64,000 nt of DNA, taken from contig CAZHAH010000002.1 of the NCBI GenBank assembly GCA_964530095.1, positions 21,691 through 85,690 on the forward strand. The letters are read 5' to 3'. Position numbers and translations under genes: made by a program. Source of the DNA: an uncultured Desulfobacteraceae bacterium (GTDB lineage Bacteria > Desulfobacterota > Desulfobacteria > Desulfobacterales > CAZHA01). Each line of letters opens with the position of its first letter. Positions within the stretch are counted from its first letter, which is position 1. Below, piece after piece: positions 12,418-39,085 of this stretch. The notes beneath the pieces were generated by a model. The model saw nothing but the letters and a program-made list of their open reading frames with translations, was not told the origin of the DNA and did no database searches.

Positions 12418-13578
12418 ATGATGAGCCAATTCCCATTTTTCACACAAAATGAGTACGGTGCACGACTAGATGCAGTTCGGAAAATCATGATCGATCAAAA
12501 CCTTGAAGCATGCCTGGTTTCGGTTCCTGAGAACATTTATTATCTGGCAGGGATAAATCACTGGGGATTTTTCGCCTACCATATGTTAATCGTGACCCTT
12601 GAGAATGAAATGGTCTTGATTGCCCGTGACATGGAGCAGGTGACAATGGATCTCCAGCTGACCAATGCGCGTTTTGTAGGGTATGGCGACCTGGATGACC
12701 CGTCTCAGACCACCATAGAGGTCTTAAAGCAGGAGGGCTTGGACCAGGGAAAATTGGGGATTGAAAAAAACAGTCTATATCTTGCGATGGCCATTGCAGA
12801 AAGAATCCAAGAAGAGTTGCCAAATGTCGAATGGATTGATGCCTCGGATCTAATCTTTCAACATCGAGTGACGTTATCCGCATCGGAAATTAAGTACACT
12901 CGTAAAGCAGCTGCGATCACAGACGCCATGATGAGAGCAGCTATCGAAACAGCGGGGGCAGGCGTGACCGAAAAAGAGGTTGCGGCTGAGGTTCACCGCG
13001 CCATGATTTTGGCCGGCGGTGAGTACCCGGCGTTTGGGCCATTCATCCGATCCACACCAACTTTGGGTTTGGAACATGGCACCTGGTCGGATCGAACACT
13101 CGAAGTCGGGGATGCGCTGTTTGTCGAACTCTCCGGCAGTGCCGGACGATACCATGCACCGATGGGTCGTTTGATTTTCGTGGGGAAAAGACCTCCCGGA
13201 ACAGAGGAGATAGAGCAGGTGTGCCTCGAGGCATTTGAAAATGTGACTCAAGCGATACGCCCGGGAGTGACCGCCCATGAGGTGTATCAAGCCTGGCAGA
13301 ACCGGGTCGATGCAGCCGGGCTTGCCCATTACCGACGGCATCACTGTGGGTACATGGTGGGCAGTGCTTTTCCCCCAGCATGGTCAGGAGGGGGCGTACC
13401 ACGCGGTTTACGCCGTAACAGTCATTTGGAGCTGCGCGCCGGTATGGTTTTTCATCTTTTGTCGTGGCTGATGCATACGGGGCGGGAGGGTGATTATTTT
13501 ATCTCAGATTCCGTGTTGGTTACAGAAAATGGCTGCGAGGTGCTGACCACGATACCCCAATATGTTCACGTCGTCTAA
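12418..13578 (+). CDS. M24-fold hydrolase, creatinase/ectoine-hydrolase-like (paralogue 1 of 4)
   Basis: Creatinase_N-like N-terminus (ENIYYLAGINHWGFFAYHMLIV). Pita-bread C-domain with SGSAGRYHAPMGR and RHHCGYMVG. Confidence 0.75.
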   Translation: MMSQFPFFTQNEYGARLDAVRKIMIDQNLEACLVSVPENIYYLAGINHWGFFAYHMLIVTLENEMVLIARDMEQVTMDLQLTNARFVGYGDLDDPSQTTIEVLKQEGLDQGKLGIEKNSLYLAMAIAERIQEELPNVEWIDASDLIFQHRVTLSASEIKYTRKAAAITDAMMRAAIETAGAGVTEKEVAAEVHRAMILAGGEYPAFGPFIRSTPTLGLEHGTWSDRTLEVGDALFVELSGSAGRYHAPMGRLIFVGKRPPGTEEIEQVCLEAFENVTQAIRPGVTAHEVYQAWQNRVDAAGLAHYRRHHCGYMVGSAFPPAWSGGGVPRGLRRNSHLELRAGMVFHLLSWLMHTGREGDYFISDSVLVTENGCEVLTTIPQYVHVV

Positions 13579-13655
13579 TCGTTGCATAAAAACATGACAA
13601 ACTTATGATTAAAATAATGGTAATCTGGTGGTAGAAGATGTTTTACGCAAGATCC

Positions 13656-13760
13656 TTACGATAATGGTAGGGATCGAACCAAGGGGGTTCGACATACCAC
13701 TGATTTAATCGCTTTGCGGGCTGGGTAAATGTCTCGCAGGGTTATGGCTGCATTTTTCAT
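13656..13760 (-). pseudogene. 5' fragment (34 codons) of a threonine-dehydratase/EutB-like gene
   Basis: MKNAAITLRDIYPARKAIKSVVCRTPLVRSLPLS* parallels TLGEIYKAQKAIRPFVHRTPLVFS of 15086..15652. Stops before the PLP lysine. Confidence 0.6.
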
Positions 13761-13764
13761 ATTT

Positions 13765-15085: not shown

Positions 15086-15652
15086 TCAATGGCCATTATG
15101 ACAAAGAATTTGATGTAAAACATCCATATTGATATTTCGTGAACTGATCACGGTCACCACTTCTCTGCCAATATCCTTTACAAGGTTGTTCATCAATGCT
15201 GCAATGCCGACAGACGCTGCACCTTCAATAACTATTTTTTCTTGTTCTAATGTATACTTGATCGCTGATGCGATCTGATCCTCGTTTACAAGTATCAAGT
15301 CGTCCACATACGTCTGAACCATATTGAATGTATAGCGGTTGTCAAGACCGATGCCCCCGCCCAAATTGTCAGCCAACGTTTCCAACTCTGCAACCTGTAC
15401 CGGCCTCCCGGCTTTCTGACTTTCATACATGGCGGCTCCTCGCTCCTCAGCGCTGAGGTTGCGCAGACGGTTTGTGGCACCACGGATCTTGAATGCACCG
15501 ATATCATGAACCGTTTCGAGTTTCAGGTATACAGATGCCCCGCAACGGATTGATATTCCGGTAGAAAATACAAGTGGGGTACGGTGAACAAAGGGGCGGA
15601 TCGCTTTTTGGGCCTTGTATATTTCACCCAATGTTACGGTTGATTCGGACAT
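15086..15652 (-). pseudogene. Threonine-dehydratase/EutB-like gene with an in-frame internal deletion of about 145 codons
   Basis: N-terminus through the PLP-Lys motif (GAFKIRGATNRLRNLSAEERG) joins directly to AAMYESQKAGRPVQV... In the full-length paralogue (28598..29592) these segments are ~145 residues apart, so GNHG and the Gly-rich phosphate loop are missing. Confidence 0.6.
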
Positions 15653-15654
15653 AA

Positions 15655-17127
15655 TTAGGAGACTCCCAACTCTTCTTCAGCCTCATCCACGATAGACCTG
15701 ATGGTGGAGACGACATCTGAAGGGAGTGGTTCCGGCTTGTGGGTCTTCAGAATATGTCTCGCCTTTTCCCATGCCCTGTCGTAGAGGCCCTTTCCACCGT
15801 CGGCTTCCCAGTCCACCCGCACTCTTCTATCGATAAGTTCCGGATGGGTCTGAACGGTCTTCATGTGCTTAAACGTGTGATCGTGGCCAAGGAAATGCCC
15901 GTGGGGTCCGATCTCTCGAATAACATCCACAGCAAGGGTTTCATCATTGACGGGAATGCCCTTGAGTACATACCTAATCATACTGATAAACTCATCGTCC
16001 ATTACCAGTTGTCCATAGTCCACGGTCATGCCAGTTTCGAGCTGTCCCACCCCATAAATCATGTTGGCACCTGCCAACGCTGGTAACAAGAGGGTAAGGG
16101 TTTTCTCATGGCCGGCCTGGACATCGGAGATCTTGCTATCGCACTACCCACCGGAGATCCAGCTTGGCAGGAGATATTTGCGGGCCATCTGAGCAGTCGC
16201 AGCACTGAGCAAGGCTGTTTCAGGATTACCGACAACTGCATTGCCTAGCCTCAGGTCCAAGCTGCAGGCTGAACTGCCGTAAAAACAGGGTGCGCCTTTT
16301 TGTGTCAACTGGCTGAGCACAACCCCCGAGAGGACTTCTGCGTTGTGGGTAACAAGGGCCCCCGCAAGGGTGACAGGCGACGAACCACCCGCCATACCCT
16401 GGCCCAATATTTCAATCGGCAACCCGGATCGGGACGTTGCCATGATAATTTGACAGCAATCTTTCACCATTTTGAGAGGCGTTACCAGAGCGGTGCCGAA
16501 TGTCATGATCGACCGATCTTTGAGCTTCTCTGCTCCTCCGACAACAGCCGCAGCCATTTCCAAAATTTTCTTGGCCAGGTATCCGCTCTGAGGTCCGATG
16601 AAACAGTGCTTGGTTGTATTCAAGAGCATGGCTTCGGCATTGTGGGCCGCAGCCACATTTTGGGCAACATCATTCGATCCCATTATCCTGTGACAGATAT
16701 CCATATTATCGAGGAAATCCATCAGGCGAGTACATTCAGCCAGGTCTCCTTTGGTGGTATCTCGTAATTCACCTGTGGTGGGATCGACCATCAATATCCC
16801 CTCACCAAAGGGATCAAATGCAACACTATTCATTTCAATTACCACGTCACGGTCTGGATTTCGCCCCGCCAGGACGACGGTCTCAGGGGCCGAGCTGACA
16901 GCCTCTTCCAGCAAATAAGGCGGAATCTTTACGATCTTCGTTTTCGGATCAACTGTGGCGCCCCCACCATCAAAGACTTCCATGGCTTCTTCATCTTCGA
17001 CAAATACGCCGTTTTTCCAGAGGACCTCCAGCGTCGCAGCGTGAATTCGATCCATGTCCGCATCGCTAAGGACGCTGAACGCTACACCTCCGTTTTCTGA
17101 TTTACCGGCACGAATGTTACGTTTCAT
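15655..17127 (-). CDS. mttB: Trimethylamine:corrinoid methyltransferase MttB with in-frame UAG at codon 328 (predicted pyrrolysine); 490 codons
   Basis: Track ORFs 16144..17127 and 15655..16089 are one reading frame interrupted only by TAG (16146-16144): ...[58 protein letters not shown] precedes ATG 17127. Close match to remembered Methanosarcina MttB around Pyl334. Confidence 0.85.
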
Positions 17128-17265: not shown

Positions 17266-18747
17266 TTACTTCCTATTCACACGCATAGAAATTGACGCAA
17301 GTTCTATCCCAGCATTTTTTTTCTTGGAATCCAAAAAAGCCTCTAGCTCTCGCACAGCTTCATCAGGCAGAGGTTCCTCTTGCGCATGGTTTTTCAAGAT
17401 GTCACTTATCAGGTCCTGGGATTTTTCTTCGGCCGTGCGGCCACCGGCTGCTTCCCAAATATCGTATTTGTCCCGGTCCAGGATAGTGGGTATAAAGTGC
17501 TCGGTGCGAAAATACTTAAAGGTATGATCGCAGCTCAAGAAATCTCCCCTGGGGCCTACTGCCTTGATTTCCTCAAAGGCCAGTGTATCGTTATTCACAG
17601 CGATGCCATCTGCCACTCGTTTGGACATGGCTATGATCTCATTATCAACCACCGTTTTCTCATAAGAGGCTCCCAGAGTATTTTCCAGCTCACCGCCGGC
17701 ATGATTAACATAGGTGACTCCCCCTAACAGACAAAGTAGATTGCTCATTAGACTTTCTACGCCTGCTTGCATTCCCAAACAGTTGGCATCGCTGGCGCCA
17801 CCGGTTCCCCGGCTGGGAATTCCATAATAGCGTGCCATCTGGGCAGTTGCCATGGAAAGTAGATCTGCTTCTGGAGCGCCATAGGGTAGAATGGTTGTCC
17901 GCATGTCCAATGCAGAGCATACGCAGCCGAACATGACCGGATTTCCGGGGTTGATGAGCTGAGCATAGGTGGCATGTGCCATAAACTCCGCTATTGCCTG
18001 GGCTAAGGCCCCGGCAATGGTCGCAGGACCCGTAGCCCCAGCCATCACTTCGGGAGCAATCATCAGCGGTATCTTTCGGTGGGCATATTCTGACAGCGCT
18101 TCCAACTCCTCGGCTGAGTTGGCCAGGGGGCTTTTGGTGTTGCACACCACCATGATGGGAAGCTGTCCCTTGGGCATGCCACACGCATCAGCTACAATCT
18201 CGGCAATCGTAATATGGTCCCGGGCACACTGACCATTAAAGGTTGTGCCCAGCACAGGTTTATTACTATGGATTAAGCTGGTTATAAACGCCCAGGCTTC
18301 TAAAACTCCTGGAGCCAAGCTGGCAGGATAGACACCTACAGTGGATATTTCATAATGCGGCAGGGCATCCGTCAGACGGGAGAAATCAATTCCATCCTGT
18401 TCAACTGCGGCGCGATGTTTACCACCGGCATCAATTACATTCAGGGCACAATTGGGGCCACTATAATATGTGTCTATGCCATTCATATCCAGGCTGTATT
18501 TGGGGTTACGCGCATGGAAGGTAAAGCGGGACGGAAGTTTTTTAAAACTGTTTTCAATCAAGCTGGCGGGAATCCGCACGATTTGCTTATCGAAATCTAC
18601 TTGAGCGCCCGCAGCATCATAGAGATCTAAAGCCTCCTGAAAAGGCATGCATAAGCCGATTTCCTCTACGATTCGCAGAGCCGTTAGGTGAATCTTTTTC
18701 ACATCATCCGGGGTGAGAACTTCGTAATAATTTGGGTGCTTGTCCAT
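17266..18747 (-). CDS. MttB-superfamily methyltransferase without an amber codon (quaternary-amine/betaine type, substrate unknown)
   Basis: 493 aa, colinear with the mttB next door. Ala occupies the Pyl column (SRGTGGASDANCLGMQAG). Confidence 0.85.
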   Translation of the reverse strand: MDKHPNYYEVLTPDDVKKIHLTALRIVEEIGLCMPFQEALDLYDAAGAQVDFDKQIVRIPASLIENSFKKLPSRFTFHARNPKYSLDMNGIDTYYSGPNCALNVIDAGGKHRAAVEQDGIDFSRLTDALPHYEISTVGVYPASLAPGVLEAWAFITSLIHSNKPVLGTTFNGQCARDHITIAEIVADACGMPKGQLPIMVVCNTKSPLANSAEELEALSEYAHRKIPLMIAPEVMAGATGPATIAGALAQAIAEFMAHATYAQLINPGNPVMFGCVCSALDMRTTILPYGAPEADLLSMATAQMARYYGIPSRGTGGASDANCLGMQAGVESLMSNLLCLLGGVTYVNHAGGELENTLGASYEKTVVDNEIIAMSKRVADGIAVNNDTLAFEEIKAVGPRGDFLSCDHTFKYFRTEHFIPTILDRDKYDIWEAAGGRTAEEKSQDLISDILKNHAQEEPLPDEAVRELEAFLDSKKKNAGIELASISMRVNRK

Positions 18748-18879: not shown

Positions 18880-20037
18880 TTATTTGAGTACCAATCTATC
18901 TAAAGGGGTATGTGTAATGACCTCCAGTCCATCTTCATTTAATATCGCAGTATTGGAAATAAATGGGTCTGCAGGATGCCCCAGGTTGATCCAGGATTCC
19001 AGGTGGAAAACCATGCCTGCCTTGAGTTCTCGATCACTTTCGGCACGCAGGCTTCTGACCTTGGTGCCCCCTACCCAGCTGGGAGGAAAACCGATTCCGG
19101 TGATATATCCGCAGTGATGGCGATGATAATCGATGCCTGCCTTATCCACAACCGCCTGCCAGGCGTTATAGGCATCGGCGGCGGTCATCCCTGGTTTTAC
19201 AGTGGAAATCAGGGTATCATTCGCTTCCAGATTGATTTTCATAAGATCTTCTGCCCCCTCAGGAGCCTGACCCATATAGACGACCCTGGTTTCCGGGGCA
19301 TGATAGCGGCGATAGCAGCCACTCACACAGATCGCCAGGGGATCGCCCTGCTTGAGATCATATGGGTTCCAACTGGCATGTTCCTGGTGCAGATTGGTCG
19401 GGGAGTGCACAAATGGGGCAAATCCAGGAATTTCACTTCCAGCCTTTATCATGGCTTTATAAAGTTCTGCGGCAACATCTTGAACTTTTATACCAACTCT
19501 TGCAATCTCGTGAGCTGCGTGCATGGCAGCATCGGATGCATGGGCAGCCTTCCTGGTGTATTCCAGTTCTTTGGGTGACTTGCAGTCCCTTAGGTCCTCG
19601 ATAATGCCGGAGGCATCCACGAAAGTGGCATTGCCAAGCCCCTCCACAATAGTCTCGGCATCATGCACCGTAAAAAAAGCATGATCTTTTTCCATGCCGA
19701 TCCGTTTTTTGTCCAGTTTGTGATCTTTAATTCGGGCCACGGTAAACTCAGCTGAATCTTCATCATCAGTGTGTCCATACCACAGAGCCAGATCTCCCAC
19801 CTGCTCGTTAATCACCACTTCTTCCATGGCCCTGGTGATGAGGATTAATTTGCCATCCTGTGGTACAATGAGCATCTGGTAAGCGAAGTGGCCCTGGTGA
19901 TCTAAACCGGTAAGGTAAAAGATGTTTTCCGGGCTGGAAACCAAAAAAATTTCCAGGTCTCTTTTTGCCATTTCATTACGCACAGCCCGCAGGCGTTTAT
20001 CATATTCCTCCTTACTAAAATAATCATGAACCCACAT
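18880..20037 (-). CDS. M24-fold hydrolase, creatinase/ectoine-hydrolase-like (paralogue 2)
   Basis: ENIFYLTGLDHQGHFAYQMLIV, SGCYRRYHAPETR, RHHCGYITG. Closest to 12418..13578. Start moved to ATG 20037 by alignment with that paralogue. Confidence 0.75.
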   Translation of the reverse strand: MWVHDYFSKEEYDKRLRAVRNEMAKRDLEIFLVSSPENIFYLTGLDHQGHFAYQMLIVPQDGKLILITRAMEEVVINEQVGDLALWYGHTDDEDSAEFTVARIKDHKLDKKRIGMEKDHAFFTVHDAETIVEGLGNATFVDASGIIEDLRDCKSPKELEYTRKAAHASDAAMHAAHEIARVGIKVQDVAAELYKAMIKAGSEIPGFAPFVHSPTNLHQEHASWNPYDLKQGDPLAICVSGCYRRYHAPETRVVYMGQAPEGAEDLMKINLEANDTLISTVKPGMTAADAYNAWQAVVDKAGIDYHRHHCGYITGIGFPPSWVGGTKVRSLRAESDRELKAGMVFHLESWINLGHPADPFISNTAILNEDGLEVITHTPLDRLVLK

Positions 20038-30220: not shown

Positions 30221-31510
30221 CTAGCCACCCATTGCCATGCTCGGTAAAAACAGGGCGATTTGAGGAAAGGTAATCAGGATGATCGTCGCCAGAATCAGAA
30301 TCAGCAGAAACGGCAGCGAGTGACCGATCACCTCGAGATACGGTCGTCGGAATATGAGCTGGGCGGTGAAAATATCGCAACCAAAAGGCGGTGTCGCCGA
30401 ACCAACCGCCGCTTGCAAAGTCACCAGCGTTCCCAGTAGAATGGGATTCACCCCCGCACCCACCACATAGGGCTGAAAAACCGGACTGAGAATGAATATG
30501 GCCACGATGGGGTCCACAAACATGCAGGCTACAAAGTAAACGACCACAATGATCGAAATCACCCACAGCATCGACGGATCGGGGCCGAACAACGGCGGCA
30601 GAAGCTGTTGAGGGATCTGCAAAAAACCGATTAAAAATGAAAATGCCTGGCCGGCCCCAACCAGAATGAAGACAACCCCGGTAATCACACCGGTCTGCAA
30701 AAAAGCATCGACAATTTTCTGGAACGTGATGGCCTTATAAACGATGGTCTCCAAAATCAATGCATATAGCACGGCAGCGGCGGCGGCCTCGGTGGGACTG
30801 AAAATCCCGGCATAAATACCACCAACGATGATTACTGGAAACCCCATGACCGGAAGCCCGTCCTTGACCGCGGACACCCGCTCGGCCCAGCTAGCCTTGG
30901 GCAAGGTTGGGACTTTTTTCACTTTGGAATAGATATAACAATAAATCGAAAACATCAGAAGGATCATCAGACCGGGAAAAACACCGGCCAGGAAGAGCAT
31001 CCCGATGGAGGTGCTGGTGGCCACCCCGTAAACGATAAAGCCGATGCTGGGAGGGATGAGAAAGGCGATATCGCTAGCGTTGATAATTAATCCCAGCGTA
31101 AAAGAGCTTTTATATCCTGCTTCCAGCAGCATGGGCCGCATGGTGCCGCCGATGGCGGCGACGGTGGCTTGGGTTGAGCCGGAAACGGCGCCGAAAAGCG
31201 TGCAACTCGCGTTGGTAGTAATGGGCAATCCGCCCGGCAGATGGCCCACAAAGACTTTCAGCATTCGTATTAACCGGCCGGCGGACTCACCGGATGTGAT
31301 GATACTGGCCGAGAGAATAAACATCGGCACACAGACCAATGCCGACGGCGTCACCCCGGTGATGATCTGCTGCACCATGGTAATGATCATTTTAGGTGCG
31401 AAATCCGGCATGTAGATGACTAGGTAAAGGATTAAAGAACCTAAAAGAGTTACCATAAAGGGGAACCCGAACAGTAACATCGTTGCCAGACTGATCCCAA
31501 AAAGTGTCAT
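30221..31510 (-). CDS. TRAP transporter large permease (DctM family)
   Basis: 429 aa polytopic protein. Start overlaps the stop of the small subunit (ATGA). Ends in TAG. Confidence 0.9.
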   Translation of the reverse strand: MTLFGISLATMLLFGFPFMVTLLGSLILYLVIYMPDFAPKMIITMVQQIITGVTPSALVCVPMFILSASIITSGESAGRLIRMLKVFVGHLPGGLPITTNASCTLFGAVSGSTQATVAAIGGTMRPMLLEAGYKSSFTLGLIINASDIAFLIPPSIGFIVYGVATSTSIGMLFLAGVFPGLMILLMFSIYCYIYSKVKKVPTLPKASWAERVSAVKDGLPVMGFPVIIVGGIYAGIFSPTEAAAAAVLYALILETIVYKAITFQKIVDAFLQTGVITGVVFILVGAGQAFSFLIGFLQIPQQLLPPLFGPDPSMLWVISIIVVVYFVACMFVDPIVAIFILSPVFQPYVVGAGVNPILLGTLVTLQAAVGSATPPFGCDIFTAQLIFRRPYLEVIGHSLPFLLILILATIILITFPQIALFLPSMAMGG

Positions 31511-32091
31511 ATCTGCACCCCCCCTATCTCTTCATCTTCGTATTCGCTCTGTTGATCCGGAGACTGCCAGGGGTCCTTTTCAGTCAAATTCTTGATGATC
31601 GTTCGGATATACTGGATACCTGCCAGGCCGAATCCGATAGGAATAATCACGTAAAATGTCCATTTCGGCATGCGCAAGGCCGGTGTCATGTGCCCTTTAC
31701 TCATGGCATTGGCCAGATACTCGTAGGAGGCCCACGTCATGATCCCCATAACGATCGCACTGACAATTGAGATGATAATAATAAACGTCTTCTCCATTTT
31801 TGGCGGCATGGCGTCTAAAAACGCACCCATGCGGATATGTCGTGCCTTCCTGACGCCGTAGCTGACACCGGTAAAGGTAGTCAGCAACACCAGAAACACG
31901 GACACTTCCTCGGCGAAATAGATGCTTTGAAAAAAAATTCGGGCAAACACATTGGCGATTAAAAGAATGCCGAGGGCGGCAACGCAAAACACCAAAATGG
32001 ATACTTCCACACCGTTGACGATCAAACCGGTGTAGTGGTTGATTCTCTGGAAGACGGACGACTCACCTGGATCCCTACTTTTATCATTCAT
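31507..32091 (-). CDS. TRAP transporter small permease (DctQ family)
   Basis: 194 aa with 4 predicted helices. Positioned between DctP-like and DctM-like genes. Confidence 0.85.
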   Translation of the reverse strand: MNDKSRDPGESSVFQRINHYTGLIVNGVEVSILVFCVAALGILLIANVFARIFFQSIYFAEEVSVFLVLLTTFTGVSYGVRKARHIRMGAFLDAMPPKMEKTFIIIISIVSAIVMGIMTWASYEYLANAMSKGHMTPALRMPKWTFYVIIPIGFGLAGIQYIRTIIKNLTEKDPWQSPDQQSEYEDEEIGGVQI

Positions 32092-32123
32092 TTCGCGGTC
32101 TCCATTGCGGATGAATCTGAGAC

Positions 32124-32154
32124 GGTACTGCGGCAGTGGGACCGCCGCAGTACC
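32124..32154 (-). promoter_or_regulatory. Intercistronic stem-loop after the TRAP binding-protein gene (11-bp perfect stem, no U-tract)
   Basis: GGTACTGCGGC-agtgggacc-GCCGCAGTACC. Confidence 0.6.
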
Positions 32155-32164
32155 ATTGGAGCGG

Positions 32165-33214
32165 TTATTTGATGCCTAATGCGCTTTTTGCATTTTCGAT
32201 GTCTTTTAAAAGCGCATCGAGAATTGCCTGGGATCCTTCGCCCCCGATTTTGGTATATTGTGGATAAACGGTCTCCGCCTTGGCCTTGAAGGTAGCAATG
32301 GTGGCATCATCCAGTACGTTGAATTTCAGCGATGGTTTGGCCTTTTTCATTTTTTCTCCATCACTGACGTTTCTTTCGGTAATCCATTTACCGGCCGGGA
32401 TGATGGCATCGATCCAGAACCTGCGCATCTCCTGCTGAACTTCCTTGGGAAGGTTGTCGAAAAACTTCTTGTTCACCGTAGGAATGCCGATAAACGGCTC
32501 ACTTTTCAACTGGGTCAAGTAGTTCTGAACCTCATAGAACTTCATGCTGAAGATGGCAAACAGCGGGTTGACCTGGGCATCGATCAGGCCCATTTGAAGA
32601 CCGCTGTAGACTTCGCCGTAGCTCATCGGTGTAGGCGCGGCCCCATAAGCCTTATAGTCTTCCACCAGCAGCTTGGAAGACATCAGGCGAAGTTTGAGAC
32701 CCTTGACGTCATCCAGTGATTTAATTTCTTTTTTGGAGCTCATCCACTGCCACCCTTCAAACATAATCGAAAGCGGTACGAGACCGTTTTTCCTGAAGGC
32801 TTTTTCCAACAGAGGCATAAACTCACCCTTTCTCACCATCCAGTCCAGAATTTCCGGAATTTTTTTGGTGGGAAATAGGTAGTTTAAAGCCAGCACCTGG
32901 GCCTGGGGAACAAACGAACTAATCCAGGCGTAATCGGAAAACACATACTGCACCACACCCATTTGGGCCAGTTCGTTGATGTCGCCAGTGGCCCCCAGAG
33001 TGCCATAGGGGTAGACATTGATGTCAATTTTGCCGCCGGACCATTTTTTCATATGATCGGAAAAATTTCTGGCCCAGACGGTCATGAAATCACCTTCAAT
33101 CTCTTCTGAAGCCAGTTTGGCCTTAACTGCCGGTCCGGTGTAACTGGCGGCCATGGCGGTGCCAAAGAGGCCGAGAATAAAAAGGGCGGTTAATAGCATG
33201 ATGGTTTTTTTCAT
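32165..33214 (-). CDS. TRAP-type (DctP family) solute-binding protein, TeaA/UehA-like position
   Basis: AAGGAG RBS and a signal peptide. EEIEGDFMTVWARNF...YGTLGATGDINE...LNYLFPTK. Confidence 0.8.
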   Translation of the reverse strand: MKKTIMLLTALFILGLFGTAMAASYTGPAVKAKLASEEIEGDFMTVWARNFSDHMKKWSGGKIDINVYPYGTLGATGDINELAQMGVVQYVFSDYAWISSFVPQAQVLALNYLFPTKKIPEILDWMVRKGEFMPLLEKAFRKNGLVPLSIMFEGWQWMSSKKEIKSLDDVKGLKLRLMSSKLLVEDYKAYGAAPTPMSYGEVYSGLQMGLIDAQVNPLFAIFSMKFYEVQNYLTQLKSEPFIGIPTVNKKFFDNLPKEVQQEMRRFWIDAIIPAGKWITERNVSDGEKMKKAKPSLKFNVLDDATIATFKAKAETVYPQYTKIGGEGSQAILDALLKDIENAKSALGIK

Positions 33215-33305: not shown

Positions 33306-34058
33306 TTATATAAAACCGGAAAACCGCTGCCGGACCACTGCCGAAAATACATAATTGATCATGGTGACATAATCGAACACCGGTAGCTTCACGGCTTCCT
33401 GAACGGTCGCAGCGTATGGCGGCAACAGACTGCATTCCAGCAGAATGGCCCCAACAGACGGATCTGTATCCACAAGATTTCGGGCCGCTGCAACCACTTC
33501 CTTTTCCACAGCTTCGGTGTCTAAAATTCCGGTTTCCTCGATGGCGAAACTGAAAAAATGCTTTCGATGCTCCAGTCCTTCAAGAACCACACGGTCCGTA
33601 TCGTGAACGCCCATTTGAAGAAGCAGCTTTCTGTCCAGGCTTCGGGAATCCGCGGTAATCACTCCCACCTTTGCCTTATCTCCCATGATGTTGCTGATAA
33701 AGGGAATCTGCAGCAGGCTGGAAAGAAATACCGGAATATCCAGCTTGCCGGCCAGCTTAGACTGGTGAATCGCCATGAATCCGCAATCGCCTGTAATGGC
33801 TCTAACGCCCTGACCCGCGAGCTCCTCGGCGGCTGTCTTCAATGCGTCGAACACCGAGGGATCTTTGCCGACTGCACGCGCGACCGTAAACCCCTCCACT
33901 TTTCGAAAACGCACCGGGAAAGGGTATGTGGTCGCATTGGCGACATCCCCCGGAATGAAAGGCACGGAGGTATCTATCAGCAGAATTCCGACGGCCTCTC
34001 CGCTGCTGACCTGGCCTTTGCGTGCTTTGTAGATGATGCTTTTCCCCTCCAAACTCAC
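33306..34058 (-). CDS. Asp/Glu racemase superfamily protein (two-Cys type), paralogue of 722..1507
   Basis: ITGDCGFMAIHQ and ILLECSLLPPY. Start set to GTG 34058, which overlaps the upstream TGA (GTGA). The track ORF start 34160 would overlap the upstream gene by 106 nt. Confidence 0.75.
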   Translation of the reverse strand: MSLEGKSIIYKARKGQVSSGEAVGILLIDTSVPFIPGDVANATTYPFPVRFRKVEGFTVARAVGKDPSVFDALKTAAEELAGQGVRAITGDCGFMAIHQSKLAGKLDIPVFLSSLLQIPFISNIMGDKAKVGVITADSRSLDRKLLLQMGVHDTDRVVLEGLEHRKHFFSFAIEETGILDTEAVEKEVVAAARNLVDTDPSVGAILLECSLLPPYAATVQEAVKLPVFDYVTMINYVFSAVVRQRFSGFI

Positions 34059-35230
34059 TCTTTCAGAAACAGCTTTCGTGGAAAATCGGCAAAAGTTTCG
34101 CAACCGGTTTCCGTTATCCGAAAAGACTCGCTGCACTCGAATCCATAGTCGTCCATCCACATGCCCAAAATCATGTGAAAAGTCATATTGGGTGCTAAAA
34201 CTGTTTTATCGCCGGGGCGTAAACTGGCCGTATGCTCGCCCCAGTCCGGAGGGTAATTCAGTCCCATGGCATAGCCTATTCGCGATTCTTTCTCCAGACC
34301 CGCTTTAGCGATATGCTTCCGCCAGACCAGTTCAATTTCCTCGCAACGCAGGCCGGGTTTTATCGTATCGAGCGTTAGATTGAGCCCCTCGACGGTATGT
34401 TCAGCAAGGCTTGAGAGTTTCTCCGGTGGATTCTTTCCGAGATAAGCGGTTCGGGCTAGCGGAGAATGATAACGATGACGGCAGGCGGCAAGTTCCAGAT
34501 TCACCGCCTGGTTTTTTTCATACGGTTCGTCGGTCCATGTAAGATGCGGCGCAGAGGTCTTTTCACCGGTGGGCATCATCGGCACGATAGCAGGATAGTC
34601 TCCGCCGAATTCATCGGTGCCCGCCATCTGGGCCTGATAAACCGCGGCCACGGCGTCACATTCCCGCACACCCGGCGCCAGGTTATCGAGGGCAGTCTGC
34701 ATTACCTTTTCGGAAATCTTTCCGGCCTGCTGCATGTAATTGATTTCAGCATCGGATTTGATGAGCCGCACCCAGGAAACAAGCAGATTCCCATCCTTGA
34801 TCTCGGCCTTGGGAAGATCCTTTTGAAGCGCCAGGAACCCGCGGGCACTGAAATAATAGGCATCCATTTCCACACCTATCGTTTGCGTACCCCAGCCGCG
34901 GCGCCTGATTTCATCGGCCACGAAATTCATGGGATGCTTGATCGGATTTTGCACATAATCATCCGGGTAGCCGATAATATGATCATCGTTTAGAAAAGTT
35001 GTGTGCCGGGCCCCGGCCGCATCCATTCCGCGACCTATCCACAAAGGTGTTGCCAAATCGATGGCGACTACAACCGCCTGAGGCACGTAAAAAGACCAGC
35101 CGTCGTATCCGGTCAGATAGTTCATATTGGCCGGGTCGGAAACGATCAGCACATCAATTCCGGCATTATCCATCCGCTTTTTTGTTTTACCGATTCGCGC
35201 TTGATACTCATCGATTTGAAACAGGGCCAT
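34055..35230 (-). CDS. Ectoine hydrolase DoeA/EutD-like M24 hydrolase (paralogue 4)
   Basis: LIVSDPANMNYLTGYDGWSFYVPQAVVVA...WIGRGMDAAGARHTTF...IIGYPDDYVQ closely resembles the DoeA N-terminal signature as I remember it. AACRHRYHSPLAR. GAGGAGG RBS. Confidence 0.75.
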   Translation of the reverse strand: MALFQIDEYQARIGKTKKRMDNAGIDVLIVSDPANMNYLTGYDGWSFYVPQAVVVAIDLATPLWIGRGMDAAGARHTTFLNDDHIIGYPDDYVQNPIKHPMNFVADEIRRRGWGTQTIGVEMDAYYFSARGFLALQKDLPKAEIKDGNLLVSWVRLIKSDAEINYMQQAGKISEKVMQTALDNLAPGVRECDAVAAVYQAQMAGTDEFGGDYPAIVPMMPTGEKTSAPHLTWTDEPYEKNQAVNLELAACRHRYHSPLARTAYLGKNPPEKLSSLAEHTVEGLNLTLDTIKPGLRCEEIELVWRKHIAKAGLEKESRIGYAMGLNYPPDWGEHTASLRPGDKTVLAPNMTFHMILGMWMDDYGFECSESFRITETGCETFADFPRKLFLKE

Positions 35231-35262: not shown

Positions 35263-36435
35263 TTATGTTTTCAATGCAGCAACACCTCGCTCGATGCGGG
35301 CAATCCCCTCCTTCAGCTGTTCCATACTTGCAGCAAAGGAAAGACGAACATATCCTTCCCCGGTTTTTCCGAAAATGCTTCCCGGTACGACAGCCACCTT
35401 GTGCTCTTTCACGAGATATTTGGCAAAATCCCACGATGACATCCCAAATGACGAAATGTTCGGAAAAGCATAAAAGGTCGATTCCGGTTTGAGGCACTGA
35501 ATTCCATCAATGGCGTTGAGACCCTCATGGACGAAATGTCGTCTTTTGTCATAGGTGGCAACCATCTCTCGTATGCAGTCCTGGGGAGCGGAAATGGCCG
35601 CCAGGGCAGCCCTCTGAGCAACTGCGGTCACGCCTGACACCATGTGTTCCATGAGCTTTTCCATCTCGTCGATGATCGCCTTCGGAGCAGTAGTGTAACC
35701 GACTCGCCAGCCTGTCATGGCATAGGACTTGGAGAGGGTAAAGGCGGAGATGGTCCGCTCGGCCATATCGTCAAAAGCACCGATGCTGACGTGCTGATGA
35801 CCGTCAAACAGAATATCTTCGTACGGCTCGTCGGAAAGAACGATCAGATCATGTTCCTTGGCTATCTGAGAAATAGAGCCTAAAATGGGTTCATCAAAAA
35901 TCGCGCCCGTTGGATTGGACGGTGAATTGATGATCATCAACTTGGTTTTAGCGGTAATAGCGGCACGGATATCGGTTGGATCGACTTTGAAATGATTGGC
36001 TTCACGAGCGGGGACTGCCACCGGCACCCCGCCGAAAAGCCTTATTTGGGAGTAGTAATCGTATCCCGGGTCGATTACAATCACCTCATCGCCCCGGTTG
36101 AGCAGATGCAAACAGGTATTGAAAATGACCTGCATGGCCCCCACGGCGACATATATTTCCGTATCCGGATCTGCAATGATATTGTTTTGACGTTTCAGTT
36201 TCTCGGCAATGGCATTTCTGAGGTCGATAAATCCTTTGGCCGGCGGATAACGGGTATACCCGTCATCCAGCGCCTTTTTGGCCGCATCGCGGATAAATTC
36301 AGGCGTGCCGAAATCGGGTTGACCGATCCCCAGGTTCACCACGTCGGGAATCTCGTCGGCTAAGGCAAACATGACGCGGATACCCGACCACTCGACTTCA
36401 TGGGTGCGGGCGGACAGTTGTTTTTCAATCGGCAT
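35263..36435 (-). CDS. Class I/II pyridoxal-phosphate aminotransferase (AspC/AlaT-like)
   Basis: NLGIGQPDF, SPSNPTG, PLP-Lys motif FTLSKSYAMTGWRVGY. ATG 36435 (AAAGGA upstream) preferred over TTG 36450. Confidence 0.85.
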   Translation of the reverse strand: MPIEKQLSARTHEVEWSGIRVMFALADEIPDVVNLGIGQPDFGTPEFIRDAAKKALDDGYTRYPPAKGFIDLRNAIAEKLKRQNNIIADPDTEIYVAVGAMQVIFNTCLHLLNRGDEVIVIDPGYDYYSQIRLFGGVPVAVPAREANHFKVDPTDIRAAITAKTKLMIINSPSNPTGAIFDEPILGSISQIAKEHDLIVLSDEPYEDILFDGHQHVSIGAFDDMAERTISAFTLSKSYAMTGWRVGYTTAPKAIIDEMEKLMEHMVSGVTAVAQRAALAAISAPQDCIREMVATYDKRRHFVHEGLNAIDGIQCLKPESTFYAFPNISSFGMSSWDFAKYLVKEHKVAVVPGSIFGKTGEGYVRLSFAASMEQLKEGIARIERGVAALKT

Positions 36436-36446: not shown

Positions 36447-37397
36447 TCAACCGGTCACCGGCAGCAAGAGATCGGCAGCTCCTTTTTTAGAAGTTTTTAA
36501 CTCCGGGGCATGTCTATCCATCAGTTCATAGATTATGGCGGCTATCTTCACTTTTTCACGAACCAGATCCCGATGAAACGATTCAAACGCCCAAGGTTTG
36601 TAAATGTCTCCTTCCGAGGTGCCCGGTTCGATCTTGAAATAGACCGGTGAGGCTACCCGTGCAATTTCCGGGGTCTCATAGGCACGGAACATGCCGCCGA
36701 AAGCGTCAACGATGATGATGTAGACATCAAGGGGGATGTCCACCGCCCGTCGAATACTGCCCAGTATGGGCAACGACACATCGGAGATCGGATTGAGGGA
36801 GTTGACACCCATGGATTCGACGACTTTGGCGCCGGCTGCGCTGCAGTAGCCGCCGAAAACCGAGAATTTAAAGATGGTCTCCGGCGGGATCAAGCCTTCG
36901 GCGCGCATCTTGTTGAGCAAAAACAGAACGCCTTCATCATACACCAGAAATCCCCTGTGGCCGGCTTCAATGTTTCGCATGATATCGGCGATGTGATAGG
37001 ATATATTATCCGATCCCCGCAGACGAAAACCTTGCATACCACCTTCCGGTGTAGAGATCTCCTTGGATCCGGGATCCCAGCCCTTGCGGTGACCCACGGT
37101 CATGATCATTTCGATCTTCTCATCGTGAGCCATCCGGGCCATATCCTTGAGTTCCTGAAAATCACAATAGGTGGAACCTCCCACAGCGGCGATGGCCCGG
37201 TGGATAGTTACTTTCCGTTTTTCGGCTTCGTCGATCATGGCTTCCATCGTAGATGCCCTTTCCACACCGGCAATCTCGATGCGGTAATTAGCACCGTCTG
37301 CAAAGCTTTTTTCGGATGTGGGCAGATCCCAGGCATCCCGTCCGGGGATGCCCTCTTTTTCCATAAAGTTACGAATTTTTTCCAATACCTCTGACAT
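36447..37397 (-). CDS. Conserved-looking protein of unknown function (316 aa)
   Basis: GAGAGG RBS, tightly packed between PanB-like and aminotransferase genes. I recognise no motif. The alternating hydrophobic/charged pattern could fit an alpha/beta barrel. Confidence 0.6.
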   Translation of the reverse strand: MSEVLEKIRNFMEKEGIPGRDAWDLPTSEKSFADGANYRIEIAGVERASTMEAMIDEAEKRKVTIHRAIAAVGGSTYCDFQELKDMARMAHDEKIEMIMTVGHRKGWDPGSKEISTPEGGMQGFRLRGSDNISYHIADIMRNIEAGHRGFLVYDEGVLFLLNKMRAEGLIPPETIFKFSVFGGYCSAAGAKVVESMGVNSLNPISDVSLPILGSIRRAVDIPLDVYIIIVDAFGGMFRAYETPEIARVASPVYFKIEPGTSEGDIYKPWAFESFHRDLVREKVKIAAIIYELMDRHAPELKTSKKGAADLLLPVTG

Positions 37398-37438
37398 GAT
37401 AACCTCTCAATTTAAGTACGATGCTGTTTCGAATACGG

Positions 37439-38296
37439 TTACTCGCTGTTCTCCATTAGTTTATTAAGCTTTGGAAGTTCTCCTTCCACCATCTTGTATG
37501 CATGTTCTTCTTTTGGAAAATGGCCGCTACGAGCCTCGTCAGCATAGAGTCTGAAGGCTTCAATGGTCTTTTCCGCCAGGTTTGCATATTTTTTAACGAA
37601 CTTCGGTGTAAAGGCTTGGAATATACCCAGCACATCGCTACAAATCATGAGCTGGCCGTCGGCTTCCCAGCCGGCACCAATACTGTAGACAGGGATGGTC
37701 AGATTGTCGCGAATAATACCGCAGACTTCCGGCGGAACCGCTTCCACCAGCAGTGAATAAGCGCCGGCCTCTTCGATGGCCCAGGCATCCGCTATCACAT
37801 CTTTTGCTGCTTCGGCGGTCCTGCCCTGGGCCTTAAAGCCGCCCAGCTGTCCGGAGCTCTGGGGCGTCAGCCCGATATGTCCCATTACCAGCATACCGGC
37901 GTCGGCGATGGCCCGAATCTGGGGGCACACCCGCTGGCCGCCCTCGAGCTTGATTGCATCCACCCGGGCTTCCTTTAGAAATCTGCCGGCATTGCGAACC
38001 GCCTCTTCAACGCTGACTTGATAGGACAAAAAGGGCATGTCGCCGATAACAAACGTGTTGGGCGCTCCGCGGCGGACCGCTTCGCTGTGCCAGATGCACT
38101 GATCCATGGTGACCGGCACCGTTCCCTCATATCCGTAGACACACATTCCCAGCGAATCACCCACCAGAATCATATCCATGCCGGCCTGTTCCGCAAAGTT
38201 GGCCGTCCAGTAATCGTAAGCGGTGATCCATACCGCAACCTGCCGCGATTCCTTCATTTTCTGCAAATCGATTCTTGAAAACTTCTTTTTGGCCAT
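37439..38296 (-). CDS. panB: 3-methyl-2-oxobutanoate hydroxymethyltransferase (PanB) family enzyme in a catabolic context
   Basis: ITAYDY...LVGDSLGMCVYGYEGTVPVTMDQCIWHSEAVRRG...VIGDMPFLSYQ...DAIKLEGG...MGHIGLTPQS...GGFKAQGR. AGGAGG RBS. Confidence 0.8.
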   Translation of the reverse strand: MAKKKFSRIDLQKMKESRQVAVWITAYDYWTANFAEQAGMDMILVGDSLGMCVYGYEGTVPVTMDQCIWHSEAVRRGAPNTFVIGDMPFLSYQVSVEEAVRNAGRFLKEARVDAIKLEGGQRVCPQIRAIADAGMLVMGHIGLTPQSSGQLGGFKAQGRTAEAAKDVIADAWAIEEAGAYSLLVEAVPPEVCGIIRDNLTIPVYSIGAGWEADGQLMICSDVLGIFQAFTPKFVKKYANLAEKTIEAFRLYADEARSGHFPKEEHAYKMVEGELPKLNKLMENSE

Positions 38297-38305
38297 TTTA
38301 TCCTC

Positions 38306-39085
38306 CTATTCGGATGTCGTATTCCCCAATCCATGGGAGATGGTCCGGCAGACGCGCCGAACCTCTTTTTGTATTTCCCTGACCCGGGCGCTGGTGACAC
38401 GGCTGACCGGTCCTGCCACACTGATGGAAAAACGGGACATGCCGGTATGGTCGAATATGGGTGCGGCCACGCACCTGAGGCCCTTGGACAACTCCTCATT
38501 GTCGACGGCGTATCCATTCATCCGGATTTTTTCGAACTCTTTTTTCAAGGCTGCTTTCGACGTGATGGTTTTGGGGCCAAGGGGTTTCAATTCGATGGTT
38601 TCCAGGATCCGGTTTCTTTCGGCTTCGGGCAGGAAGGCGAAAATCGACTTGCCCAGAGCCGTACAATAGGCTGGGGCCCGTGAACCCAAGGGCGAATCCA
38701 TACGCAGCACTTCGGGCGAATCGATTTTGTCGATGTGAAGAACATCCGATCCATCCAGGTATCCGAGATTGATGGTTTCCTTGAAGGCCTGTGACAGTTC
38801 GTTCATCAGCGGCCGCGCCATTTGCCGGATTTCGAACCGATCCGCAACCCGGGCACCCATGCGGTAAGTTTTGAATGTCAACCGGTAGCGGTTTTCAGCG
38901 GTCTTTTCTACATAACCCAGCTCTTTCAGTGTCGCCAGGAACCGGTGGCTGCCCGCCCGGTTGTAACCCAACCGATTGGCCACCTCGGACACCGACAGAT
39001 CCTCATTTTTTGACAACAGCTCCAACACTTTCAGTCCCTTTGCCAGTGAACTGATGAAAAAGTATTTTTCTCCTGCAGCAGGCAA
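38306..39085 (-). CDS. IclR-family transcriptional regulator
   Basis: SSLAKGLKVLELLS...LSVSEVANRLGYNRAGSHRFLATLKELGYV, then an effector domain. TTG start with AAAGGA. Confidence 0.85.
   Translation of the reverse strand: MPAAGEKYFFISSLAKGLKVLELLSKNEDLSVSEVANRLGYNRAGSHRFLATLKELGYVEKTAENRYRLTFKTYRMGARVADRFEIRQMARPLMNELSQAFKETINLGYLDGSDVLHIDKIDSPEVLRMDSPLGSRAPAYCTALGKSIFAFLPEAERNRILETIELKPLGPKTITSKAALKKEFEKIRMNGYAVDNEELSKGLRCVAAPIFDHTGMSRFSISVAGPVSRVTSARVREIQKEVRRVCRTISHGLGNTTSE

Follow-up and report, generated by a model that had tools for sequence, protein, structure and literature searches.

What does a run of about 25 kb of minus-strand genes do in the chromosome of an uncultured Desulfobacteraceae bacterium, and does it specify one catabolic pathway or several that have come to lie side by side? 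The run is part of a 64,000-nucleotide stretch of contig CAZHAH010000002.1 (assembly GCA_964530095.1, positions 21,691 to 85,690), here called the window, and comprises 24 consecutive open reading frames (ORFs) from 39085 down to 13656. The original prediction, made from the letters of this DNA, was that catabolism of ectoine- or hydroxyectoine-type osmolytes is here fused to methylamine demethylation. The answer favored here, with moderate confidence, is that the run belongs to an island in the chromosome of an uncultured marine Desulfobacterales, devoted to the catabolism of compatible solutes rich in nitrogen and composed of three separable modules; the region is read as a lineage-specific mosaic of these with several gene remnants. 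Module A (39085-27531, with the M20 gene at 22555-21368) would be a Thermodesulfobacteriota version of ectoine/hydroxyectoine catabolism. Module B (27506-22610), consisting of an Amdase-family gene, a Frd/NadB-like flavoprotein, an iron-sulfur/CCG subunit and another Amdase-family gene, would be an accessory redox block. Module C (8247-21330, on both strands), with an Ehu importer, an extra binding protein, the M24 hydrolases M24c and M24a, an M24b-non-Pyl MttB pair, a pyrrolysine (Pyl)-type MttB and a URO-D methyltransferase, would carry out corrinoid-dependent demethylation of trimethylamine and of another methylated amine. What the analysis establishes is which genes are present, their families, the statistics of their synteny, the pseudogenes and the purifying selection; each substrate and each reaction named below is a prediction from sequence.

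The run opens with an IclR-type regulator, PanB, a 316-residue protein (Unk316), a class-I aminotransferase (AT), DoeA and a PRK07475 racemase-family protein (Rac), and continues with DctP, DctQ, DctM, a universal stress protein (Usp), EutB, a second DctP, Amdase/EutA-like protein 1 and TfrA-like and TfrB-like subunits. There follow Amdase/EutA-like protein 2, M20, M24a, M24b, the non-Pyl and the Pyl-type MttB and, last, a eutB remnant, the URO-D gene and a eutB stub. As originally described, there are about 24 genes with gaps of at most some 180 nt, the widest being 178 nt (DctM to Usp); the start/stop overlaps are present as well, in the form of three or four of 4 nt (Unk316/AT, DoeA/Rac, DctQ/DctM and possibly EutB/second DctP) rather than the five that were counted. 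Both halves of the run, remnants included, are reproduced in Logan assemblies made independently from other sequencing runs, and pN/pS relative to orthologues is 0.05-0.32 for all intact genes; the gene run is therefore real, and its intact genes are under purifying selection. Promoter and terminator scans of the run gave counts at shuffle level, so that sub-operons are neither defined nor excluded, and no convincing internal terminator was found by the terminator scan; a promoter-like site is present upstream of iclR at 39204-39175. The IclR-type protein is the only regulator in the run, which has no EnuR (MocR/GabR) or AsnC regulator. The organism belongs to an obligately anaerobic lineage, its closest relatives being uncultured Desulfobacterales/Desulfobacteraceae and the Olavius Delta-1 symbiont. 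For comparison, 80 species-level loci around DoeA homologues were fetched and the window proteins mapped onto them (loci and contigs carry L numbers below), with family calls from NCBIfam curated cut-offs, Pfam, Rfam and PDB sequence searches.

The case for ectoine begins with the predicted ectoine hydrolase DoeA/EutD. Its alignment to TIGR02993 is full length (4-391 on 6-391 of 391), and the model is its best hit though below the curated cut-off; PepQ gives only 66 bits. Relative to the crystallised H. elongata DoeA (PDB 6TWK) it is 48% identical over 385 columns, end to end (405 bits), and the next PDB family, the prolidases, reaches at most 76 bits, which upholds the DoeA/EutD-like hydrolase initially noted at 34055. 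Close homologues, at 77-91% identity, are numerous in Desulfobacterales metagenome-assembled genomes (MAGs) and the Olavius symbiont. Among cultivated bacteria, the core cluster is carried by Desulfospira joergensenii and by strains of Desulfotignum, Desulfobacula or Desulfobacter whose DoeA is at least 70% identical. A typical Desulfobacterales order is IclR-PanB-Unk316-AT-DoeA-Rac-M20-DctPQM-(Usp)-EutB-(DctP2)-DoeA'-OCD, and the core of the window has the same order as relatives L008, L013, L060 and L069; DoeA, Rac, M20, the tripartite TRAP transporter and EutB also occur together in Spirochaetes, Atribacterota and anaerobic Bacillota. With DoeA and uptake genes present and synteny kept across anaerobes, the proposal of an anaerobic ectoine-type module unlike the canonical doe/eut set stands, and most likely the window carries an ectoine uptake and ring-opening module different from the aerobic pathway. 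Two features of relatives are missing: a second DoeA (46-56% identity to DoeA) is common in them and none is in the window, whose other M24 genes share no more than 23-28% identity with DoeA, and the M20 that adjoins Rac in relatives is not at that position.

Ring opening by DoeA would yield N-alpha-acetyl-diaminobutyrate, from which the M20 protein would remove acetate to leave diaminobutyrate (DABA). That protein is of the N-acyl-amino-acid amidohydrolase type (best PDB matches ILL2, 266 bits, and YxeP, 254 bits) and falls short of the DoeB2 model NF038260 (271 against a cut-off of 550), its top NCBIfam hit being carboxypeptidase CpsA (393 against 500). M20 genes are within 10 kb of DoeA in 13/13 Desulfobacterota-type, 5/7 Spirochaete, 9/10 anaerobic Bacillota/Atribacterota and 17/21 Bacilli loci. 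Because of its type and this co-occurrence it is likely the substitute for DoeB/EutE: where M20 had been listed among genes standing in place of the missing EutC, DoeB/EutE and DoeC, it is instead a recurrent partner of DoeA. No protein of the cluster has an NCBIfam or Pfam hit to EutE/DoeB of the AstE/AspA family, an absence that rests on hidden Markov model (HMM) scans of the window proteins; the proteobacterial DoeA-like loci fetched were not in eut clusters and gave no canonical EutE query.

Uptake in Module A would be by a TeaABC/UehABC-like TRAP transporter, accompanied by a TeaD-like Usp and a further binding protein. In the PDB, the first binding protein, DctP1, matches UehA (3FXB, 162 bits) and TeaA (153 bits) best. 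For the second, the orphan DctP2 at 28562-27531, the top matches are 4PFI (238 bits), TeaA (178) and UehA (173), with the best match outside this group at 118 bits. For both, UehA, TeaA and 4PFI rank 40-60 bits over other DctP proteins. Glu, Arg and Asn residues corresponding to ligand contacts of UehA/TeaA are conserved in the DctP1 alignment. Gene order (P-Q-M-usp) and the grouping of the binding protein with TeaA/UehA agree with the teaABCD-like arrangement first proposed, in which DctP2, the PRK07475 gene and the 316-residue gene had gone unmentioned.

The hydroxylated branch, which Rac and EutB would serve, is probably impaired in this strain. The eutB gene is frameshifted through loss of 1 nt from a T7 stretch (28789-28783). 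The sequence is GGTATGTTTTAT in orthologues and GGT-TTTTTTAT in the window and in L003; L004 has the same frameshift, which is fixed in several assemblies. The zero frame ends at 28759; the -1 frame holds the conserved C-terminus and is open for 61 codons (pN/pS 0.22-0.47). When repaired, the protein is within 9 bits of the EutB cut-off (404.5 against 413) and more than 110 bits over the next family, so that of the EutB-like dehydratase noted at 28598 the family assignment holds and the intactness of the gene does not. As a side remark only, programmed -1 frameshifting can be mentioned: the zero frame reads GG_T TTT TTT_A, placing a T_TTT_TTT slippery heptamer in register for a -1 shift to the conserved frame, and such recoding would give the peptide ...KDGFFYTFDQHR...; orthologues have no frameshift at this T7 site. 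Two further eutB pieces flank the URO-D gene and are reproduced in independent assemblies. One is a 188-codon ORF at 15652-15086, 47-57% identical to the main eutB and without the part corresponding to about profile positions 75-206, and the other, at 13760-13656, is an N-terminal stub. They look like rearrangement scars at the end of the island.

For the EutA role, the PRK07475 protein, found with DoeA in 11/13 Desulfobacterota and 6/7 Spirochaete loci, is likely the analogue and a better candidate than the two Amdase-family genes initially described as EutA-like. The latter fail the EutA model (147 and 102 against a cut-off of 318) and score about equally on the arylmalonate decarboxylase model. 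EutC gave no tblastn hit at E<=1 across the 64-kb window. The canonical EutA/EutB/EutC set is accordingly not what was found, the EutA model having failed, eutB being frameshifted and EutC being without a match. The reported lack of EutC, DoeB/EutE and DoeC was confirmed across the 64 kb, and a class-III aminotransferase is likewise absent. As a trait of an anaerobic route, though, the absence of EutC does not hold up, as EutC-like (OCD-family) genes are in 24 related loci. Taken with the frameshifted eutB, it points to a loss of the hydroxyectoine branch particular to this strain, and the branch is taken to be reduced in this strain because eutB is frameshifted and both EutC and a second DoeA are missing.

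From DABA onward, the route to central metabolism would involve the class-I AT, Unk316 and the PanB paralogue instead of DoeD/DoeC. Tblastn with class-III aminotransferase queries from L001 and L099 found no match in the window, and among the window ORFs scanned there is no aldehyde dehydrogenase that could be DoeC/Ssd. Two gene sets occur around DoeA. Set 1, a class-III aminotransferase with Asd and often aspartokinase, is in Anaerolineae L099, in L074 and in five Spirochaete loci; all 7 Asd loci have the class-III aminotransferase and 4 have aspartokinase, and none has PanB or Unk316. Set 2 has Unk316, usually accompanied by PanB and, in Desulfobacterales, by the class-I AT as well; it is in about 17 loci of Desulfobacterales, Halanaerobiaceae and Syntrophomonadaceae, 0 of which have Asd. 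The AT/Unk316/PanB trio thus probably replaces DoeD/DoeC, judging from gene content. Set 1 suggests that DABA is converted to aspartate by running this part of ectoine biosynthesis backwards, with a kinase step that could yield ATP. In L099 (an Anaerolineae MAG, GCA_035341665.1, 1208-15337) and Spirochaete L047, L062 and L081, the class-III aminotransferase, Asd and aspartokinase are beside DoeA and M20. A further arrangement is that of L001/L009 (CP070652.1, a complete Deltaproteobacteria MAG chromosome), a cluster with Unk316 and AT and without PanB, and with an arginase-family gene, a class-III aminotransferase, OCD, YjgF and, nearby, a flavoprotein and a short 2Fe-2S protein.

The class-I AT is in 10/13 Desulfobacterota loci. 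PanB is in ectoine-type clusters of Desulfobacterales, Halanaerobiaceae, Syntrophomonadaceae and one Spirochaete, with IclR and Unk316 as its neighbors in the window and in L008, L013, L018, L069, L038, L040 and L071. Between the Desulfobacterales protein and those of the other three groups its identity is 59-70%; for DoeA and Unk316 of the same loci the figures are 55-58% and 42-47%. None of the other pan genes (panC, panD, panE) is in the window. Unk316, whose family comprises 732 clusters at 50% identity, gave nothing significant in sequence searches against PDB. An initial AF2 model from 25 sequences of at least 80% identity (pLDDT 60, uninformative fold matches) was replaced by one from a deeper alignment, a TIM barrel with pLDDT 95 and pTM 0.93. 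Its best Foldseek matches are the class-II aldolases YdjI, AgaY and FBA and a U32 protein, at a modest TM of 0.45-0.58, and 15/40 family members weakly match the Pfam Peptidase_U32 family. Asp, Glu, Lys and Arg make up the conserved residues, with neither Cys nor His in the nearly invariant columns.

Module B is set into this arrangement. Its flavoprotein has homologues at 59-86% identity whose contexts were mapped, and both subunits miss the cut-offs for thiol:fumarate reductase TfrAB (473 against 718 and 243 against 385). The pair is an extra enzyme and not a housekeeping one, since the canonical three-subunit SdhABC is at 45753-49082. The block directly follows DoeA in L007 and L002. Desulfuromusa L098 (and L074) has TRAP-DoeA-GDH-proline racemase-TfrAB-aspartokinase-M20, and Anaerolineae L099 an Ehu-like ABC importer, a class-III aminotransferase, Asd, aspartokinase, Amdase-TfrAB-Amdase, M20 and DoeA. 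All of these loci, L002 included, have both DoeA and M20, so that the block keeps company with the two genes in three phyla. In Desulfobacterales L097 the order is EhuA-MttB-M24-IclR-Amdase-TfrAB-Amdase-M24. Clusters with the block tend, in a small sample, to be without EutB and OCD within reach, a pattern that fits both the original notion of genes standing in place of the canonical ones and the decay of eutB here. Most likely the flavoprotein would act on an aspartate-like or fumarate-like C4 product. GC content over 22000-28000, where the block lies, is 0.535-0.548, against 0.46-0.50 on both sides, which is consistent with a separate origin of the block.

Module C contains what had been recognized as a Pyl and a non-Pyl MttB with a URO-D-family protein, for which Table 1 gives the scores; the Pyl assignment is firm. 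A PYLIS_3 element (RF02510, 77.5 against a gathering score of 38) begins exactly at the in-frame TAG of the Pyl-type mttB; an Rfam scan of the whole window found no other family at gathering score. The non-Pyl protein is 30.5% identical to the Pyl copy and, among PDB structures, matches glycine betaine methyltransferase MtgB (9YCE/2QNE, 266 bits) best. The URO-D gene is on 8 contigs, and a start five codons downstream of the longest possible one agrees with public gene calls. M24b and M24c, which are 44% identical to each other (M24c being 28% identical to DoeA), have DoeA as their closest characterised M24, yet are far under cut-offs. As regards other candidates, no creatinase structure is among their PDB hits, where DoeA is top, and DMSP lyase DddP gives 29-35 bits against a cut-off of 600. 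The M24 hydrolases would probably release or process the second methylated amine of the module.

A metagenome scan with the non-Pyl MttB gave 10 mostly short loci, informative as to immediate neighbors only. The M24b-MttB pair is in five contigs (L007, L087, L090, L091 and L094) with varying neighbors, and homologues of M24c adjoin the non-Pyl MttB in L094, L095 and L097. In L094 the order is M24c-IclR-M24b-MttB, and in L095 it is EhuBCDA-IclR-UROD-OCD-M24-MttB, so that elsewhere an M24-MttB pair comes with separate IclR, Ehu and URO-D genes and with no DoeA orthologue. On these gene orders the M24b-MttB pair is a unit of its own with Ehu, IclR and URO-D, one that has repeatedly been shuffled with ectoine genes in one uncultured Desulfobacterales clade. 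Neither a description of the M24-MttB pair nor anything on DoeA_2/DoeB2 was found in the literature. The ehu unit, on the plus strand, converges on the minus-strand run. The Ehu-like importer first noted at 8247-11432 is sustained in EhuA, EhuC and EhuD, which pass their models; EhuB, the specificity-determining subunit, is just under its cut-off (188.6 against 190.9), with S. meliloti 2Q88 as best PDB match at 89 bits. Ehu permeases beside Pyl-MttB in marine Deltaproteobacteria have been noted before (Kivenson et al., PMC8318568). At the module junction, between the second SBP_bac_3 gene and M24c, is a remnant of an ABC ATPase gene.

Table 1. Features of the gene run and of the converging ehu unit, with window coordinates; model scores are in bits, followed by the curated cut-off where one applies
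Feature	Position	Strand	Basis
IclR-family regulator, first gene of the run	38306..39085	-	IclR Pfam domains; BhcR 203 (cut-off 350)
PanB-family 2-oxoacid hydroxymethyltransferase	37439..38296	-	NF001452 336 (272); TIGR00222 303 (207.6)
Unk316, TIM-barrel protein, predicted divergent U32/class-II-aldolase-like fold	36447..37397	-	no Pfam/NCBIfam hit
Class-I (AspAT-like) aminotransferase (AT)	35263..36435	-	under all NCBIfam cut-offs; PDB ArAT/AspAT 330 bits
Predicted ectoine hydrolase, DoeA/EutD orthologue	34055..35230	-	TIGR02993 508 (613), full length
PRK07475 Asp/Glu-racemase-family protein (Rac), candidate EutA analogue	33306..34058	-	NF005679 292 (231)
TRAP transporter dctP1-dctQ-dctM, TeaABC/UehABC-like	30221..33214	-	DctM TIGR00786 324 (268)
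Universal stress protein, TeaD-like position	29605..30042	-	Usp family
eutB, hydroxyectoine-utilisation dehydratase-like, frameshifted	28598..29592	-	352 as called, 404.5 repaired (413)
DctP2, second, orphan TeaA/UehA-like TRAP solute-binding protein	27531..28562	-	PDB 4PFI 238 bits
Amdase-family protein 1 ('EutA-like')	26763..27506	-	EutA 102 (318); Amdase 102 (225)
Frd/Sdh/NadB-family flavoprotein (TfrA-like)	25038..26720	-	TfrA 473 (718); NadB 324 (453)
Iron-sulfur subunit (TfrB-like): SdhB-like 2Fe-2S/4Fe-4S N-terminus, GlpC/HdrD-like CCG C-terminus	23371..25005	-	GlpC NF008369 376 (278), residues 138-538; TfrB 243 (385)
Amdase/Asp-Glu-racemase-family protein 2 ('EutA-like')	22610..23332	-	EutA 147 (318); Amdase 126 (225)
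M20 N-acyl-amino-acid amidohydrolase, candidate N-acetyl-DABA deacetylase	21368..22555	-	TIGR01891 361 (154)
M24a hydrolase, most divergent paralogue	20176..21330	-	DoeA_2 154, PepQ 138, below cut-offs; 23-28% identical to other M24s
M24b hydrolase, conserved partner of non-Pyl MttB	18880..20079	-	DoeA_2 239 (575); PDB DoeA 150 bits
Non-Pyl MttB-superfamily methyltransferase	17266..18747	-	TIGR02369 355 (525)
Pyl-type trimethylamine methyltransferase MttB	15655..17127	-	TIGR02369 679 (525); TAG 16146-16144; PYLIS 16146-16047
eutB-like remnant, internal deletion	15086..15652	-	NF005680 matched at 1-74 and 207-322 (about 75-206 missing)
URO-D/MtaA-family methyltransferase, 406 aa	13765..14985	-	Pfam URO-D 91; MtaA/CmuA 52 (235)
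N-terminal stub of a third eutB-like gene, 34 codons	13656..13760	-	translation MKNAAITLRDIYPARKAIKSVVCRTPLV... matches EutB N-terminus
M24c, creatinase/DoeA-like M24 hydrolase, last gene of the ehu unit	12418..13578	+	ectoine_DoeA_2 242 (575)
ABC ATPase gene remnant, signature-motif region, in intergenic gap	12330..12400	+	71 nt, 76% identical to ehuA 11097-11167
Second family-3 solute-binding protein, same unit as ehu	11485..12273	+	Pfam SBP_bac_3; no NCBIfam hit
ehuB-ehuC-ehuD-ehuA, Ehu-type ABC importer	8247..11432	+	EhuA 395 (345), EhuC 254 (197), EhuD 260 (205), EhuB 188.6 (190.9)

Whether the modules are separable is where one alternative departs from the preferred reading. It is unlikely, as things stand, that the 25 kb are a single operon for one integrated pathway in which ring or amidine opening by M24 enzymes is coupled to MttB demethylation, the substrate being, for example, an N-methylated cyclic amidine or a methylated ectoine-like osmolyte brought in by Ehu. 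Co-directionality of all 24 ORFs, their narrow gaps, the want of a convincing internal terminator and the closeness of M24b and M24c to DoeA suit such a pathway. So does L007, with the order M24b-MttB-M24-PanB-Unk316-AT-MttB(Pyl)-DoeA'-DoeA-Amdase-TfrAB-Amdase-M20, in which the MttB genes are interleaved with PanB-Unk316-AT and DoeA genes; so too do the metagenome contigs in which the M24b-MttB pair is followed by M24-PanB-Unk316, PanB, DoeA' or M20, and L097, where EhuA-MttB-M24 is tied directly to Amdase-TfrAB-Amdase. The interleaving in L007 and the abutting of the pair on ectoine genes in several contigs count against separability, and because of them a closer functional tie than separable modules can be argued. 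However, MttB is within 10 kb in only 1 of the 80 DoeA-centered loci, L007 itself (DoeA 87% identity), and Spirochaetes, Bacillota and most Desulfobacterales have a complete ectoine core with no MttB. Neither ectoine nor hydroxyectoine has an N-methyl group, and we know of no methylated ectoine-like substrate of the kind required. No corrinoid protein is encoded nearby, and the GC step across 22-28 kb and the gene remnants at junctions point to assembly by recombination. Of the original claim, then, the recurrence of the ectoine core in relatives is upheld, and the fusion to methylamine demethylation is limited to a narrow clade, the pair occurring elsewhere without DoeA.

A more radical doubt is whether ectoine is concerned at all, rather than generic salvage of peptides or N-acyl-amino acids served by amino-acid or dicarboxylate transporters, the ectoine labels being annotation carry-over. 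When the curated Eut, Doe and Ehu models were run, DoeA, EutB, EutA, EhuB and M20 (as DoeB2) all fell under their trusted equivalog cut-offs, CpsA headed the NCBIfam hits of M20, and public sources label many of the homologues 'Xaa-Pro dipeptidase'. We nevertheless consider it very improbable: DoeA, though below its cut-off, prefers its own model and structure over PepQ and prolidases by a wide difference (508 against 66 bits, 405 against 76), repaired EutB comes as close as described to its cut-off, three of the four Ehu subunits pass at equivalog level, both TRAP binding proteins group with two ectoine-binding structures, and the same gene set surrounds DoeA across phyla. In L099, DoeA, M20, the class-III aminotransferase, Asd and aspartokinase would suffice to take ectoine to aspartate if the enzymes act as predicted. 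That the island is being lost in this strain and is of little function is improbable too, even with a eutB frameshift fixed in several assemblies, two additional eutB remnants and one of an ABC ATPase, and the absence of the second DoeA, the EutC and the Rac-adjacent M20 of relatives. All other genes are intact and full length with the low pN/pS values given above, the frame after the eutB frameshift is itself open and constrained, and the remnants are at module junctions, as expected of rearrangement rather than general decay. The remaining points that weigh against the three-module reading concern particular assignments. The AT resembles generic AspAT. PanB passes the true-PanB model and could be plain pantothenate biosynthesis sited here, and it is missing from the otherwise complete clusters L009 and L063. 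Unk316 has neither the His metal ligands of class-II aldolases nor the Cys of U32 Fe-S enzymes, for which reason 'aldolase' is a description of fold only. No B12-binding homologue that could be the corrinoid protein, no RamA and no pyl genes are in the 64-kb window, where no tRNA, tRNA-Pyl included, was found either. In L095 and L097 the Ehu importer accompanies MttB/M24 and not DoeA, because of which its substrate may not be ectoine.

Within the three-module reading, one version of the steps after DABA would be alpha-transamination to a 4-substituted 2-oxobutanoate and C3-C4 cleavage to pyruvate, the C1 unit passing to tetrahydrofolate. PanB chemistry is the addition or removal of a folate-bound C1 unit at C3 of a 2-oxo acid, and because of this the sequence from DABA via such an oxobutanoate to pyruvate and methylene-tetrahydrofolate is chemically plausible. 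A broader proposal, decidedly unlikely as a whole, is that several phyla of anaerobes use this folate-linked route: AT would form 4-amino- or 4-hydroxy-2-oxobutanoate from DABA, the PanB paralogue and Unk316 would convert it to pyruvate and methylene-tetrahydrofolate, and EutB could yield a like compound from hydroxy-DABA. MttB would then be co-localised as both systems feed folate-level C1 units into the Wood-Ljungdahl pathway, with the M24-non-Pyl MttB pair representing a new substrate class of MttB.

To the left of the ehu operon (5612-7900) are a DNA methylase/HTH gene and an AbiEii (type IV toxin) gene, neighbors also present in the independent 35-kb assembly L102, and these genes may delimit a variable region. 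On the other side, divergent from iclR on the plus strand (39408-45698), are genes for a D-2-hydroxyacid dehydrogenase, two LysE-type exporters, an FAA-hydrolase-family protein, a PfkB kinase and an amidohydrolase. Their adjacency to the run is kept in the same organism's other assemblies (L003), and no link to the cluster was evident in relatives. The canonical succinate dehydrogenase/fumarate reductase (cytochrome b, flavoprotein and FeS subunits) is on the minus strand 7 kb from the cluster, and the remaining window is ordinary chromosome, with SdhABC, Tol-Pal, RuvABC and rpsI.

To our knowledge, all biochemically proven ectoine degradation pathways come from aerobic Proteobacteria. In these, EutD and EutE convert ectoine/hydroxyectoine to ADABA/hydroxy-ADABA and on to DABA/hydroxy-DABA, and EutABC is needed for hydroxyectoine use (PMC8739950); as late as 2018 ectoine consumers were thought to be confined to Proteobacteria (PMC5924519). 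With the canonical clusters (doeABCD of H. elongata; uehABC-usp-eutABCDE-asnC-ssd-atf of Ruegeria pomeroyi) the window shares DoeA/EutD, the EutB-like protein, TRAP-usp and Ehu. It differs in having M20 for the AstE/AspA-type deacetylase, in lacking the class-III aminotransferase, the semialdehyde dehydrogenase and EutC, in having IclR instead of EnuR/AsnC, and in its strictly anaerobic host. Putative clusters of Thermodesulfobacteriota, e.g. of Desulfospira joergensenii, have been described from sequence alone (AEM, April 2026; PMC13188858). They have 9-13 genes, usually two eutD, no eutE, ssd or EnuR, and no synteny with Proteobacteria, and no roles are given there to the 'grey' genes (M20, PanB, Unk316, AT). 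Shared with that type are the co-directional eutD-centered cluster, the uehPQM-type TRAP, eutB and the lack of eutE/ssd, whereas the window has one DoeA-type gene, no EutC and a frameshifted eutB, and is larger at 24 ORFs, the Amdase-TfrAB-Amdase-M20 block and the M24/MttB/URO-D genes being added. The cluster type is thus not new, and the window is a larger, mosaic and partly degraded variant of it. New here are the AT/Unk316/PanB set as against that of class-III aminotransferase/Asd/aspartokinase, the Amdase-TfrAB block and the M24-MttB pair.

Other systems give similar mixtures of likeness and difference. Relative to TeaABC-TeaD of H. elongata, UehABC of R. pomeroyi and EhuABCD of S. meliloti, the P-Q-M-usp order, the best match to UehA/TeaA and passing EhuA/C/D are shared, but the UehA/TeaA scores are only 153-178 bits, there is an orphan second binding protein and EhuB is under its cut-off. 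With Pyl-MttB/MttC/RamA and non-Pyl MtgB, the TAG- and PYLIS-containing gene, the paralogue nearest MtgB and a URO-D/MtaA-family methyltransferase are in common; the corrinoid protein, activase and pyl genes are not in the 64 kb, and the non-Pyl MttB has an M24 partner. The redox pair resembles TfrAB/NadB/GlpC in combining a Frd/NadB-type flavoprotein with a subunit having an SdhB-like N-terminus and CCG domains, but is below Tfr cut-offs, is flanked by two Amdase-family genes and is in ectoine-type clusters of three phyla. The PanB gene passes both PanB models but is between a regulator and Unk316, with no panC/panD/panE nearby.

Few microbial osmolytes of marine and saline sediments are as abundant as ectoine and hydroxyectoine, and complete-oxidising sulfate reducers are major mineralisers of seabed carbon. 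If the reading is true, such sulfate reducers would remove ectoines anoxically, with different enzymes after ring opening. Candidates for the missing steps would be an M20 deacetylase and then either AT with Unk316 and PanB, or the class-III aminotransferase with Asd and aspartokinase, a combination that could conserve ATP. An Ehu-type annotation beside Pyl-MttB in marine Deltaproteobacteria may not signify ectoine uptake. Comparative data also tie a large unannotated family, that of Unk316, and the M24-MttB gene pair to osmolyte catabolism.

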